Translations under genes and position numbers: made by a program
Part shown: piece by piece, positions 12,022 through 47,485 of the stretch
Position numbering within the stretch: the stretch's first letter is position 1
Layout: every line of letters starts with the position of its first letter
Notes under the pieces: generated by a model
The model's input: the letters and a program-made list of their open reading frames with translations, nothing else
What the model was told of the DNA's origin: nothing
Database searches by the model: none
NCBI RefSeq assembly: GCF_036321535.1
Contig: NC_087436.1
Span: 53,446,001 to 53,510,000 of the forward strand
Source: Camelus dromedarius
Taxonomy: Eukaryota
Length of the DNA stretch: 64,000 nucleotides
Reading direction: 5' to 3'

Positions 12022-12160
12022 GTTGGAAAGGTATGGAGTCTGTTCCAAAGCTAGCTGCTGACTACAAGAATAAGAAATTCAATCTGGATGCACTGGTGTC
12101 CCATACCCTCCCTTTTGACAAAATCAGTGAGGCATTTGACCTAATGTACCAAGGAAAAAG
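12022..12160 (+). CDS. ADH4: ADH4 exon 8
   Basis: 139 nt, [49 protein letters not shown]. Confidence 0.95.
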
Positions 12161-13094
12161 GTAAATTACCAAACAGATGGGTGAGCAGTTTGAAAAACCC
12201 TGATGATGATTCTATTTTCATTGGACGTTAAAAACTAACCAGTTTGTCTTTTCTGACACTCTCCACATCATCAGAAGTACTCAATGGGCTTAAAAGATTA
12301 AATAGTGACCATTTGGAGAAAAGCCTCCTACTCCATTTCCATAATGTACATGGCCATGCACTATTCTAATAAGAGTGATGGTATGAATTGACACAAATTT
12401 TTCATTTTCACAAACAATTAATTGTTAACTCAAGTAGGGCTGCTCCCTAGAGAAAGAGATTTCTACAGTGTAATGCCAGGTTCCCTTAGTACAATATAGC
12501 CCTGGGTCTGGAATCATTATGGTCTGCAATTGACACAGAACGCCCACTCCAGGCCCTTCATTATCAGAATCAGGTGATTCTGAAAATATGAGCAGTGAGT
12601 GGCAGGTGTCAACTCTTATTCTCTTGCTTTGTTATGGGAGTCCTATAAGTGCATTCTGATCCACAATTTTAGCTATATTCTGTTCCCTTGGCATAAACCC
12701 TAAGGACTGATTTATAGAAATTCCCAACTGGGTGATCCCTAGTAACTGGGGAGTAAGACTAGGATCAATAATTTTGGTTAAAATAATCAACCAGAGCATT
12801 GGTCAATAGAAGGAAGGACAAAACACCAGGAACAGTGTTGCATAGAGAAGATGCAAAAAGGCAACAAAAAGAAAAGACATCACAAAAGAGACAGGGTAAA
12901 AACATATAGTTAAATGACAGGAGTTTGAAACAGGGGATAAATGTTGCAAAAGAAGAAAACAGATCCATGGTGTGAGGACCCAGGATACTTCCTGGGGAAG
13001 AAACCTTAGAAAATATCCCTACTGACATGAACTCCCTAACTTGCAAAGGTTTTAGCTGCAATATCAAAAAGAAGTTCAATAAAAAGAAAAGAAA

Positions 13095-16000
13095 TGATCC
13101 CTGCTTGGTGTGGTGAGGATGATTTTCTTTGCAATTAAGGAGCAGACTCTTGTTTTCACTCTGAGTACCAGGAGGTTCAAAGGTTTGGAAAGAGATAGCT
13201 TAGCAGAAAAGGAATGTGGGCAGGAGAAATTGAATCTCTTGCATGAATTTCTGCAAAAAAGAAATAAAGAATCAATTATGTTACTTTATGTAAATTACAT
13301 AAAGAAAAAGTATTAGTGGAGGGCTACCTGGCTAAAATCAAATCCCTTTTAAATAAAGATTCGTCCTTGGAGAATGGAGCTCATGCTTTCAATTGGGAAG
13401 GGAATGGATGTCTAGAAAACAAGCGGTAAAGACCTCTGACTGAGAATAGCAGAGGAAACAAGTCCCCCAAACCCATTTCCACACTTTGCATGCCCAGAAG
13501 AAGCAAGTCTGATGGAGAAAGAGAGTCTCAAGTCTCATCTAGGTCCAGGAATATAAGGCAAGCTACCGGGCAGAACACCATCACATTTCATTTAGCAAGG
13601 AAACCTGAGAAAGAACTTGAAAGACCAAAACTGGATGATTCTCTCAATGAAGAAGAAAAAGACCAGGAAGCAAAGAGACATAAAGTCACTTCCAGAGAAC
13701 CAACTGCTAGACCATTCCCTGCAGAAGAACCAGAAAGAGTAAAACCATAAACATACAAGAAAGAAGAATGAAGGGAAGGAAAAGAAGAAAAGAGACTCAG
13801 AAGTCAAACCAAAATAGAACCTAAATAGAAGTCTAAGGAGGATGCAAGACCAGGAGTTCAGGTTGAAATGGGTAGAGGAGATGAGAAAGATAAAAAGAGG
13901 CACAGAAGACAACCCAAAGATTCTAGCTGCCAGAGACCTGAAGAAAAAGAATCTGAAAGAGTAAAACCACAAGTTTCTGATTAGAAAGATGAGGATGAAA
14001 AGTTCTGGAGACTGCAAGGCCAAGATCAAAGTGACAGCAGGGAGGAGAAGAGATGCAAAACTACATTCAAAGAACCAACTGAGAAAAAAAATGGCTCAAA
14101 CCAAAACAGCTGTGTCCTCCAAGACCCATCCTCTGACGTGCATTCAGTGCAGACAATATCTGGATAACACTGAACTAAAATATGAACAGCATTCCCCTGA
14201 TGCAATGGATGAAATACAGTTGTTGACAAATGAGAGAATGTCTATCTTCAATGTCAAAGAATCCGGCTTTGAGAGGCTCTTCCTCAACCAAACTGACGTG
14301 CTTCAGCATGTACTATAAACACAATCACCAGTGCCTGATCAACACTAGCCTCATTAAGAAGAAAGTCCAACTCTTCTGGTTCAGCAAAATCAATACATGA
14401 TGATGGCCCATCTCTTGAAAGTGATTTAATGGCAAAATTCTTGGTCCCATAAATAAATGGTGGATCACTGATTTTAAAAGAAGTGAAAAGGCTCTCATTG
14501 GCTTCAGCACCTCATCTGCCAAATATATTCTGATAGATCCCAATACACATTGATGTCCAGCATGATGCAGGAGATCTACTTAAGACAGTAGAGTTCCTGC
14601 AGAACAACCCTGACTCAACCTATAAAGACCTGATCAATAAGATTAAGGCCACTGTTCCTCCTGTGCTCATCCTGAATCAATTCACTGAGGAGTCTCTCCT
14701 TTGGCATGCCCAGTTTTTGGTGGGACAAGTAAAGAGCTATGATTAGTCTGGGGCTAGTGACAAGTGACCCATCTTCCTGATCTGCTGCATGAGAGACCTG
14801 ATCAAGTTGGTGGGGACCACCCTGGGAAAGAGGCAAGCTGAAAGACTTCAGACCATTGGGCATTCTGCCAAGAAGAAAGACAAAGACCTCACAAAAGCCA
14901 TCACTATCAATCTGGTCTACCAGATCTTTGACACTTTCTTCACAGAGCAAATTGAAATGGAGACTAAGAATGCCTTTAAATGCTGGCTGTGTGGCATCTG
15001 CGAGTTTTGTCAACAGCCCAAATGTAGAAAGTGTGAAGCCTATAAGGATATGGTTAAATTTGGTGGTAGGGAACAGAGCAAACAGGCTTCCTGAGAGAAG
15101 TGTTCCATTTTTTAATCCATGGCCATGAAGGATGAAGATGATGATGAAGTTGATGACAAAATCCCAGAGAAAAAGTGCATCAGGGGAAGGAAAAGAAACA
15201 GAGCAAGAATCTGATATGTTGGGTTAGAGAAGTCATCAAGACTGCTGGGGGAACTATATTCAATATCTCGTAGTAACCTATAGTGAAAAAGAATACGAAA
15301 ACAAATATATGTATGTATATGTATGACTGAACTATTATGCAGTACACCAGAAATTGACACAACATTGTAAACTAACTATAGTTCAATTAAAAAAAAATAA
15401 AAGAATACTGGGAAGAAGAGTTACTATAAGAAGGTATGCATTGCCTCAGAAACCCTGGAAGTGGGGAACTGTGTCTCTGTTATTCCAAATGATTCCTGAA
15501 AACCATCCTCACGGCACTGCAGGAGGACAGCAGCAAAAGGCAGAGCTTGCATACCCACTGGTTCTGTGCTGGGATAGACAGGGTCCTCCGGGCCACATCA
15601 GATCCCCCCTGGAGCAGCTCTTGTTAGATGAACGTGAGGATGTGCAGCTTTTCACACACTCACAGCAAAGTTCCGTCGGAAAACTGGGCCTTGGAGGGAG
15701 GCATGGATTCTGAGACCTTGATAACAGAGGGTAATGGGAAGACTTGTTTCTCCCAGCTGTGACATGAACAAGACCATGCAAGATTTGAGAACCCCCCAAA
15801 ACTCAGTCGATGGAGAAAAAGCATAAATTCTGTATAAGCTGTGTCTGTCTGGCTGAAATGAGGCAAAAAGAAATTCCCAGGATCATGGAGCAGCTTGAGG
15901 ACCTTGATGGCCAGGGTCTCTTCAGCTCAGCCACCAAGACTGGCATCCAGTATCGAGCGGGCAACAGCATGCATCTCCTCCCTGAGGCCTTCTCATTGGA

Positions 16001-16765
16001 CCAGTCCTGTAAAATATCCACAGAAGGAGCCTGTGGATGAAGATATGTACCCTAAACACTACGAGAACTATTCCAACTATATCTAAGGCATGCCACAAGT
16101 TGGACGCCCCTGGGCCATACCAAATTGGCCACATAAAAGATCTTCTGAATCAATAAGAGCGCCCAACACAACACACAGCAAGATCAGACAACAGGTTCTA
16201 CAAGTCAGCAAAGGCCTCTGTTCTTGCAGGAGGCAGCACTCCTACAGGAGGCTGTGCCTGAAAAGAGGGTTGTAACATAGCACACATAGTGTTTTAAGAG
16301 TTACATAGAGGTGGCTGTTTTTCCAAGTGTTTCTGATTATTTGGTGCATACTGACATTGACTATATTTCATAGCCTTTGCTCTTAGGCCTCTATTTTAAA
16401 GTTGCAGAGCTCTTTCTACAAAACAAATCCATAAGCAGAAGTCCAGAGTGTGACAAAAGCAGGGATGGAATGTTGTGGGCTCCGCCTGAGGCACCCCCAA
16501 GAGAACATCAAGTTCTATTTATGACAGTCTGTGATCTGCTCCTTCCCATGAGTCCGTCCCTACTCTCAGTCCTCCTGCTCTTTCCAGGCCCCTCCTCCTT
16601 TTTCTAGAGTTTCTCTCTGTCCACACTTTCCCCAAGGTCTTGGCTTCACTCAGTCTTTTTTGGTGATCCTAATAGTGGTTAGGAGCTAACCTAAAACTAA
16701 TCCATACAGATAGATACAAAGTTGCTTTACTTCTTAGTTACTATACATCAAAGATTTTCTGAAGA
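13095..16765 (+). pseudogene. DNMT1: Processed (retro) pseudogene of DNA (cytosine-5)-methyltransferase 1, N-terminal regulatory part only, inside ADH4 intron 8
   Basis: Intronless, frameshifted and stop-ridden homology 13175-16203: [36 protein letters not shown] region, [32 protein letters not shown]1, [12 protein letters not shown], start of BAH2. Outer limits set from a candidate target-site duplication AAAAAGAAAAGAAA (13081-13094 / 16766-16779), which is less certain than the homology. Confidence 0.93.
15250..15400 (+). mobile_element. 5'-truncated LINE-1 3' tail nested in the DNMT1 pseudogene
   Basis: ggaactatattcaatatctcgtagtaacctat...cagaaattgacacaacattgtaaactaactatagttcaattaaaaaaaa; TSD AAGACTGCTGGG (15238-15249) / AAGAATACTGGG (15401-15412); interrupts DNMT1 [12 protein letters not shown]. 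Confidence 0.88.
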
Positions 16766-17915
16766 AAAAAGAAAAGAAAAAATACACATTATTTTTAAAG
16801 CTACACAAAGTAACTTAGGGCATAAGCCCCAGAGTATCTTGCAAAATCTCAATATCCCCATAAGACTACTCCTCAAGTTAAGAGTTATGTTGGGGTTTGG
16901 GGCCTTAGATCCTGGTTCTCATAGCTCCTCCACCACTACCCTTTTTCCCCTAGAGTTCTCCCTCATGGAATATACCCATAAGGACTGCCATGTGGTAGCC
17001 AAATGAAAAATGTTGCATTACCTTATTAATAGCTGGGCAAGCCTCCCATACTATCCCAAATAGGCCAGGTAATCAGCAGTAGAATGGAGGTTGAGGGTTA
17101 GACACCTGAATGAGGCTTCCTACTTCCCCCTGGTGCACTGAGAAGACCATCTGACTGCCCACACAGCTGGACAGGTGGCAACAGAGAAGGCAGAGGATGG
17201 GCCTTCCCAGGGATACTGACCATACAGGAAGCACAACTGAGGACTTATCCTCCTGCCACACCAACTGCATAAAAGCAAGGAAGTGGAAGGCGCACAACAC
17301 CCAGCTGGCCTGTTAAGGTGCAGTGACCCTGACTCATGTCATAGGTATGTATAGCTCCAGGTCCTGCAGGAAGAAAACAGTTATGCACAACAACCTGCTG
17401 ATGCCAGGGATTCCCCAGCTCCAGCAGTAAGGTCCGAGATAAGAAATTCTCTGTCCTTGAGGCTTATCCCCCTTTTTGCTTCTACATGTTAAAGGGGTGA
17501 TCCAGGAGCAGAAATTTTTGAGTTCTCTGAAAGTAGCAACCCAACACACCAACCACTCCCTCTTTTGATGCCAATTTGCCCTAAGCTACAGGAGAGCCAA
17601 GAGCAGTGACTGTTTCAAGTCAAAAATCTCACTACACCGGCGGCAGGCTCTACTTCTCTATAGCACCACTGGGCAACAAGGACCTTGACCAGAGTCAAGT
17701 GTGGGTTCCCAATTTTCGCCCAGCTTACTAACACCATGTGTAAAGTATTATTAATGTCATGGATGGATGACAAGATAAAGAAACTAGACAACTAGACTTA
17801 GCAAAGTGAAATATCTATAAAGAAACATTAAAACAAAAAAATAAAAATTATTTGTGGATTTTGGTTAAACTTATCATGAAAATTATACTGATTACTGTTT
17901 TATTATTATTAACAG

Positions 17916-17940
17916 CATTCGGACAATCCTGCTCTTTTGA
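17916..17940 (+). CDS. ADH4: ADH4 exon 9 (terminal coding exon)
   Basis: aacag|C ATT CGG ACA ATC CTG CTC TTT TGA = (S)IRTILLF*; exons 2-9 sum to 1125 nt in an open frame. Confidence 0.93.
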
Positions 17941-21377: not shown

Positions 21378-22139
21378 TTTTCTTTTTAAGTGAAGTATAG
21401 TCAGTTATCATGTGTCAATTTCTGGTGTACAGCACAATGTTCCAGTCATGCATATATATACATATATTCATTTTTATATTCTTTTTCATTAAAGGTTATT
21501 ATAAGCTATTGAATATAGTTCCCTGTGTTACACAAAAAACTGGGGGCTAACATTTGCAAATCTCAAACTCCCAAATTTATCCCTTCCCACCCCCTTCCCC
21601 CAGTAACCATAAGATTGTTTACTATGTCCATGAGTCTGTTCTGTTTTGTAGATGAGTTCATTAGTGTCCTCTTTTTTCTTTTAGTGAAAAAAGTGACATA
21701 TAAGTGACATCATATGGTATTTTTCTTTCTCTTTCTGGCTTGCTTCACTTAGAATGACAATCTCTGGGTCCATCCATGTTGCTACAAATGACATTATTTT
21801 ATACTTTTTATGGCTGAGTAGTATTCCATTATATAAATATACCACAACTTCTTTATCCAGTCATCTGTCAATGGACACTTGTTTCCATGTCTTGGCTATT
21901 GCATATAGTGCAGCTATGAACATTGGGGTGCATGTATCTTTTTGAATTAGAGTTCCCTCTGGATATATGCCCAGGAGTGGGATTGCTGGATCATATGGTG
22001 TCTATTTTTAGTTTTTTGAGGAATCTCCATACTGTTTTCCATAATGCCTGCACCAAACTACATTCCCACTAGCAGTGTAGAAGGGTTCCATTTTTTCCAC
22101 ACCCTCTCTAGTGTCTATCATTTGTGGACTTTTCAATGA
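21378..22139 (-). mobile_element. 5'-truncated LINE-1 (3' UTR plus ORF2 end)
   Basis: Minus-strand L1 3' motifs, ORF2 C-terminal remnant (DTREGVEKMEPFYTASGNVVW); TSD TTCTACAGGCCTGATT (21362-21377) / TTCTATAGGCCTGCTT (22140-22155). Confidence 0.9.
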
Positions 22140-30829: not shown

Positions 30830-31560
30830 TCTACGCTGCCTGGGCTAACGGTACACGGGGAAACTCCGGACAGAGACTTTGCAGCGAGCCTGTCAGGTTC
30901 ACCATAAAGCAGCCACCGCCCTCCTGCCGCCTTGAAACTACTACAGCTTCCCGCGAGACCACCTGGGCGTCAGGGGGAGCACTGACCGCGCAGCACCTCA
31001 GGCCCCGCCCTTCTCGTTCAAGCCCCGCCTCCACGCTCGCCCCCGCGCAAGCTGAGGCGGGACCGCGCCCGTCTCACGCCCCGCCCAGGTCCTGGACCCA
31101 CCCCGCGAGGCCGTTCCCGGACTTGGACGCCCGCTTCACGGTCACCGGAATCCGAGGACATGGCGAACCAGGTATCGCCAGGTGCTCCGGGGACGAAGTC
31201 CGAGAAAGGAAGGGAGGGAGGGAAAGCATGGGGCAAAACCGGGCCTCTGGCCTCGGGGGTCGTGCGGGGCTCAGCCCAAAGACGGGATCTGGCTACCGGA
31301 GCTGAAACGGGGCCTCGGGTCAGCGGCTCACCGGGAAAGAATGGAGGAAGCTTTGTTCCAGCTGCTTACTGGGAAGTTTTGATGCTTCTGAGACAGCAGA
31401 AGCGGGGTGGGGGTCGGGGGATCCGGAGTAGGGAGGAGGGCCAGTGTCCTGGTATCTTCGGAGTGGCTTAGGAGCCGCCATGCTTTGCGCACACAAAAAT
31501 AATTCGCCCCGGGTCGCACTTGTAAGTGGCAGAGCTGTAGCCGGCGCCTAACCCCTAGGA
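30830..31560 (+). promoter_or_regulatory. ADH5: ADH5 CpG-island, TATA-less promoter with multiple GC boxes
   Basis: High CpG density; CCCCGCCC/CCCCGCCT boxes near 31003, 31023 and 31079; surrounds exon 1. Confidence 0.88.
31160..31171 (+). CDS. ADH5: ADH5 (class III ADH / S-nitrosoglutathione reductase / GSH-dependent formaldehyde dehydrogenase) exon 1
   Basis: gacATGGCGAACCAG|gtatc = MANQ in a good Kozak context inside the CpG island. Confidence 0.93.
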
Positions 31561-46024: not shown

Positions 46025-46121
46025 GGGGTTGGGGGCATAGCTCAGAGTTAGAGCACGTGCTTAGCGTACACAGGTTCCTGGGTTTAATCCCCAGTACCTC
46101 CATTAAAAAAAAAGAAAGAAA
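46025..46121 (+). mobile_element. tRNA-derived SINE (camelid Vic-1-like)
   Basis: gcatagctcagagttagagcacgtgcttagc...ctgggtttaatccccagtacctcc plus A tail; TSD AAATGAAACAAAACA (46010-46024) / AAATGAAGCAAAATA (46122-46136). Confidence 0.85.
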
Positions 46122-47351: not shown

Positions 47352-47485
47352 GGAAGTAGGGTATAGTTCTAGTGGAAGAGCGCATGATCAGCATGCACAA
47401 GGTCCTGGGTTCCATCCCCAGTACCTCCTCTAAAAATAAATAAATCTAATTATCTCCTCCCTTAAAATTTAAGAAAAAAAATTTT
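47352..47485 (+). mobile_element. tRNA-derived SINE (camelid Vic-1-like) inserted in older L1-like sequence
   Basis: gggtatagttctagtggaagagcgcatgatcagcatgcacaaggtcctgggttccatccccagtacctcc plus A-rich tail; flanking direct repeat ATATTGGC. Confidence 0.8.

Follow-up and report, generated by a model that had tools for sequence, protein, structure and literature searches.

A decayed DNMT1 retrocopy in an ADH4 intron carries a homologue of the 13-residue insert of ruminant DNMT1

Sheep are said to have a 13-residue DNMT1 exon, "12b," that is specific to the oocyte and early embryo and that was reportedly described by Taylor and colleagues in 2009. A development-specific DNMT1 isoform of sheep is in print (Taylor et al. 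2009, PMID 18951375), as cited in the available part of PMC13201342, and the available parts of PMC3221676, PMC3683128, PMC8202464, and PMC5880922 do not mention the exon. In mouse, oocyte Dnmt1 is a shorter isoform, according to the accessible text of PMC2164986. Related systems are known from the co-option of ERVL-MaLR elements (MLT1/MST). LTR co-option in cow oocytes was reported by Franke et al. in 2017 (available part of PMC5538554), and ERVL-MaLRs make up 34.4% of 64 TE-exonization isoforms of human oocytes in the accessible part of PMC13233917. The cases in the available parts of these two papers are mostly promoters and first exons. Processed pseudogenes made by L1, as a class, have no introns, are flanked by target site duplications (TSDs), accumulate stops and frameshifts, and can freeze alternative exons of the transcript from which they were copied.

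All of these class features are found in a DNMT1 processed pseudogene at about positions 13095 to 16765 of the window, by which we mean the whole 64-kb stretch of DNA analyzed here. It lies in the last intron of ADH4, in sense orientation, and all features of host gene and retrocopy given below are on the + strand. The penultimate exon of the host gene was read from the sequence at 12022 to 12160, and the best PDB match of this upstream exon is ADH4 (3cos, human); the last coding exon, with an AG acceptor, a short frame, and a stop, is at 17916 to 17940. Exact 14-nt TSDs flank the retrocopy at 13081 to 13094 and 16766 to 16779. The 14-mer has just two copies in the 64 kb and is A-rich, hence no proof by itself. 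The intron-less coding remnant at 13175 to 16203 corresponds to about residues 27 to 1035 of cattle isoform X4, without the catalytic domain. In a frameshift-aware alignment with that isoform, 635 of the 946 aligned residues are identical, with 11 stops and 20 frameshifts, and introns are missing over about 1,000 aligned residues (3 kb). A zf-CXXC domain match is still present. The remnant is split by a later repeat tail at 15249 to 15405, which we take to be an L1 3' end, with related copies at 21411 and 35430. The sequence is thus a decayed processed pseudogene, dead and making no protein, and the TSD together with the lack of introns points to L1 as the likely copier. It differs from the typical processed pseudogene in that it keeps the 5' end, loses the 3' third of the gene, and ends in an apparent intron, with no clear poly(A) tail. 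The ancient duplications of exon pairs within the DNMT1 linker can still be recognized at 13666 to 14081 (units 13667/14042 and 13725/13947).

Both ends of the retrocopy bear on the transcript that was copied. The 5' leader at 13095 to 13174, about 80 nt from the TSD to exon 2, is unlike somatic exon 1; homology to somatic DNMT1 begins at 13170. The leader contains an ATG that shares the frame of exon 2, and its last two codons read T-R. Among the isoforms that carry the 13-residue insert discussed below, zebu X6 has an alternative N terminus that also ends in T-R, a match of two residues, weak and suggestive only, and deer X4 begins at an internal Met. Judged from its sequence, the leader is likely to be an alternative, germline-type first exon and may be a fossil of an oocyte first exon. 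The earlier note on this DNA had proposed that the cassette described below co-occurs with an alternative first exon, and the non-somatic leader of the retrocopy bears this out. The insert-bearing deer isoform resembles the shorter mouse oocyte isoform (available text of PMC2164986) in its internal start, whereas the leader in the window has an in-frame ATG, so that a shortened form is not necessarily encoded. On the 3' side, the last homologous residues are KFY; a GT comes right after these last DNMT1 codons, and about 560 non-coding nt at 16204 to 16765 lead up to the right TSD. The 3' exons, a canonical poly(A) signal, and a run of eight A residues are all absent from the retrocopy before this TSD. 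The 3' tail is likely to be parental intron sequence, which suggests that the template, without the catalytic domain, ended in an intron or was internally primed. The heritable insertion and the non-somatic leader suggest that the source was a germline mRNA, probably of the oocyte or early embryo.

Within the coding remnant, 39 nt at 14003 to 14041 stand in the DNMT1 frame, with the codons for DEDEK before them and those for EEKR after them, as first noticed in the earlier note. The upstream exon copy, which ends in DEDEK, is at 13925 to 14002 (start approximate), and the downstream 35-nt exon-like unit that opens with EEKR is at 14042 to 14076, with a paralogous unit at 13667. The two motifs had been taken to be contiguous in somatic DNMT1. 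We collected 94 full-length DNMT1 isoforms covering the site from protein searches and cluster listings, each cluster being partial (for example, 15 of 341 members). In 91 of them DEDEK and EEKR are directly joined, and the other three have a 13-residue insert at this place. The insert, FWRIQFTYQSTSR, was found among the isoforms listed in Bos taurus X4 (XP_010805078.1), Bos indicus X6 (XP_070648894.1), and Odocoileus X4 (XP_020758002.2), that is, in 3 of the 5 ruminant isoforms, and is identical in the three (13/13). The proteins listed include no ovine isoform; we take the insert to be that of ovine DNMT1(12b). The peptide encoded in the window agrees with it at 8 of 13 residues, including the first three and the last two, and 0 of 200,000 shuffles reached 8. 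At least 9 nucleotide changes separate the two cassettes, with five residues different. Junction, length, and frame are the same, and the proposal that the cassette is a homologue of the ruminant exon is upheld. The difference is in the setting: the ruminant cassette belongs to annotated isoforms of a living gene, whereas that of the window sits in a dead retrocopy, in a genome that is likely camelid, whose donor was likely pre-ruminant.

Outside ruminants, none of the isoforms listed has the insert (camelids 0/11, suids 0/8, cetaceans 0/7, horse 0/3), and the rodent, rabbit, and primate DNMT1 isoforms examined do not have it either. Its absence from the camelid, suid, cetacean, and horse isoforms may reflect loss, or annotations with no oocyte RNA behind them. 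The cassette of the window has no TSD or poly(A) of its own and no stop codon, both as the earlier note had observed; 48% of the 39-mers in the window are likewise stop-free, which makes the open frame weak evidence alone. The cassette is not a local duplication, with best local scores of 16 to 24 against the rest of the retrocopy, and no LTR-like relative of the 39-mer was found in the 64-kb window, where the best gapped score of 28 was equalled by 46 of 100 shuffles. Searching 1.84 billion representative sequences by phmmer with a 35-residue stretch returned 0 matches, the ESM Atlas search yielded no usable match, Rfam gave one chance-level match, and ARAGORN gave none.

That DEDEK|EEKR is an exon junction could be examined with short database ORFs. 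Eight of 10 such ORFs hold the upstream exon up to DEDEK and continue with V-R or V-S, as expected of a GT-type intron start, and the end of DEDEK is therefore an exon junction. This agrees with the earlier claim; the evidence is for the donor side, as these ORFs give no direct view of the acceptor that precedes the EEKR exon. The other two ORFs resemble whale retrocopies. A grey-whale model (P0001), whose match ends after DEDEK, was dropped as junction evidence because of its likeness to a family of whale retrocopies (P0111 and P0113). All three are whale-like, multi-exon DNMT1 fragments with unrelated sequence right after DEDEK, probably representing a separate retrocopy of DNMT1 in cetaceans with its break at this junction.

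In an alignment with 23 DNMT1 proteins, the pseudogene, read through its stops and frameshifts, has 10 of 13 laurasiatherian states, as well as an Ile common to horse and cetartiodactyls, and next to none of the residues derived within Cetartiodactyla (camelid 0/8, whale+ruminant 0/14, ruminant 1/18, suid 1/15, cetacean 1/7). At the 13 sites that define cetartiodactyls, it is ancestral at 9, derived at 2, and different at 2, and the 9 ancestral sites include both diagnostic insertions, such as a Gly insertion common to camel, pig, cattle, and dolphin. Two apparently shared residues were set aside: a cetartiodactyl Ser in alignment column 260, one of the two derived states, is a frameshift artifact, the bases by eye being ancestral Ala-Ala under a compensating frameshift, and a Met in column 82 was excluded from the counts as variable among relatives. 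Phylogenetic analysis places the pseudogene beside Cetartiodactyla with weak support (69/54) on a long branch (0.52), and because of this branch length the site counts carry most weight. By the AU test, grouping with ruminants was rejected (P = 1.5e-7), grouping with camelids was weakly rejected (P = 0.036), and a donor on the whale+ruminant stem was not rejected (P = 0.117).

The shared amino acid states are best read as those of a donor on the early cetartiodactyl stem. This stem dates to roughly 60 to 80 million years ago. With laurasiatherian states and none of the camelid or whale+ruminant derived states in the donor, splicing of the exon likely predates crown Cetartiodactyla, and the cassette would already have been part of the mRNA ahead of the split of camels, pigs, whales, and ruminants. 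An age greater than that of ruminants, which the earlier note had ventured, fits the lack of whale+ruminant states, the missing cetartiodactyl insertion, and the rejection of a ruminant donor.

As to where the exon came from, a reasonably probable candidate is an MLT1-type MaLR LTR standing in antisense orientation in the parental intron. In a comparison made by hand, the cassette agrees at 27 of 32 columns, one gap included, with the MLT/MST motif quoted in the earlier note, a motif that is not library-derived. On their antisense strand, MLT1-type LTRs would offer a pyrimidine tract and an acceptor directly in front of this motif, and a GT some 39 nt further on. According to the available part of Franke et al. 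2017 (PMC5538554), ERVL LTRs at insertion have a donor and no acceptor, and the LTR reading accordingly needs the antisense orientation. The likeness to the MLT1/MST co-option in the accessible parts of PMC5538554 and PMC13233917 would be that of a putative source for an exon in an oocyte-type transcript; in contrast to the promoters and first exons that predominate there, the DNMT1 cassette is internal and its LTR origin a candidate only. DNMT1 is not named in the available main text of PMC13233917 or in 10 of the 11 supplement files of PMC5538554, the table opened being for mouse, and the available pseudoexon table of PMC8819188 holds no matching exon. Genome, viral, and metagenome contigs gave 0 LTR-like relatives, these collections being microbial or viral and not expected to hold mammalian repeats, and 0 matches were obtained to the AG/GT-flanked exon pattern in metagenome contigs, which is uninformative for mammalian DNA.

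In our preferred account, which we hold with good confidence, the cassette is a homologue of the ruminant exon in a dead retrocopy of an early-cetartiodactyl germline DNMT1 mRNA. Such an mRNA, cassette included, would have been copied by L1 into the ADH4 intron, and the candidate antisense MLT1-type LTR of the parental intron would have given the exon its acceptor and probably its donor too. Carried by the living gene, the cassette would put 13 more residues into the unstructured N-terminal linker, where it would separate the acidic DEDEK run from a basic KRRR run; catalysis would be untouched, and the effect would at most be to tune import into the nucleus or the binding of partners. The insert corresponds to cattle residues 319 to 331. 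This place, flanked by the DMAP-binding and RFD domains, belongs to no Pfam domain and is upstream of the human crystal constructs. In mouse oocyte Dnmt1, a second nuclear localization signal lies in residues 140 to 259 and retention needs residues 308 to 854 (accessible text of PMC2164986). In deer, the cassette begins at residue 198 of the short isoform, which by rough numbering puts it within the region of mouse residues 140 to 259. The likeliest function would be a modest one, in nuclear import or in partner binding. The conservation of the cassette (8/13) is no better than that of its flanks (about 61 to 67%), and no selection on it is therefore demonstrated. A fuller scenario, to which we give tentative and rather low credence, is that DNMT1 gained an antisense-MaLR exon before the cetartiodactyl radiation, that the exon has since been spliced into an oocyte-type mRNA with its own first exon and selected at least in ruminants, tuning nuclear import of maternal DNMT1 through the separation of the acidic and basic runs of the linker, and that the retrocopy is the dated fossil of that transcript.

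The function of the exon is where a competing account has most room. The cassette could be an old, functionless, leaky cryptic exon that is included at some rate in germline transcripts, is tolerated since it keeps the frame in an unstructured linker, and was captured by chance. We regard this as a serious rival, possible if on the doubtful side. Conservation equal to that of the flanks is what such an exon would show, and it is absent from the camelid, pig, whale, and horse isoforms listed; the retrocopy also seems to end in an intron, as though the template had been incompletely processed. A leaky exon sits less easily with a length, frame, and pair of ends that are the same in an ancient copy and in living cattle and deer (mutually 13/13), with annotation in three ruminant species, and with the published development-specific sheep isoform (Taylor et al. 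2009, as cited in the available part of PMC13201342). The exon might also be the same one and have arisen from ordinary, unique intron sequence, its LTR likeness being coincidental, which we think unlikely. Three collection scans, the window, and the literature gave no repeat evidence, as this origin would have it; the collections in question hold microbial or viral sequence, which makes their silence meaningless, and 27 of 32 columns would be far above chance if the motif quoted in the earlier note is right.

Two further alternatives concern the retrocopy itself. That its donor lived later, on the whale+ruminant stem, with an exon just modestly older than ruminants, is compatible with the AU test and with an insert so far seen only in the ruminants among the isoforms listed. 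We consider it very improbable in view of the 0/14 whale+ruminant derived states and the missing insertion common to all sampled cetartiodactyls; moreover, a camelid host, as the repeat types of the window suggest, could not inherit such a copy. The pseudogene did gain a repeat at 15249 to 15405, and a small repeat fragment could in the same way have been inserted after retroposition and have hit the exon junction by chance. This has practically no probability left: living ruminant isoforms share the site, the length, and 8/13 identity, no TSD surrounds the cassette, and we count such a late insertion as refuted by the ruminant isoforms.

The exon is already annotated in ruminants, and processed pseudogenes that preserve a germline isoform are familiar objects. 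The novelty lies in the dating by a molecular fossil and in the LTR lead; neither a camelid DNMT1 retrocopy nor the age or LTR origin of the exon is described in the literature covered, which includes few subscription papers. On the preferred early-cetartiodactyl reading, a cassette so far annotated only in ruminants was likely spliced into the DNMT1 mRNA of a much older ancestor, beside a non-somatic first exon. This raises the question of whether non-ruminants have lost the cassette or are under-annotated. DNMT1 keeps LTR elements methylated. If the LTR origin and a regulated inclusion are both true, a retroelement remodelled the maternal form of a retroelement-silencing enzyme.

The surroundings of the retrocopy hold some further features. 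Among sequencing runs that contain the locus, 14 from one organism carry 0.99 of its words, and several of these may be the source. Downstream of ADH4, a second ADH gene, presumably ADH5-like, has its GC-rich promoter and its first exon from 31000 to 31170 onward, and paralogous exons were detected. Two SINE copies are present at 46030 to 46117 and 47355 to 47444, which we take to be of a camelid-specific type, and the SINE and L1 tails of the window presumably are camelid by their look. Few other young repeats occur in the 64 kb, unlike in a ruminant genome.
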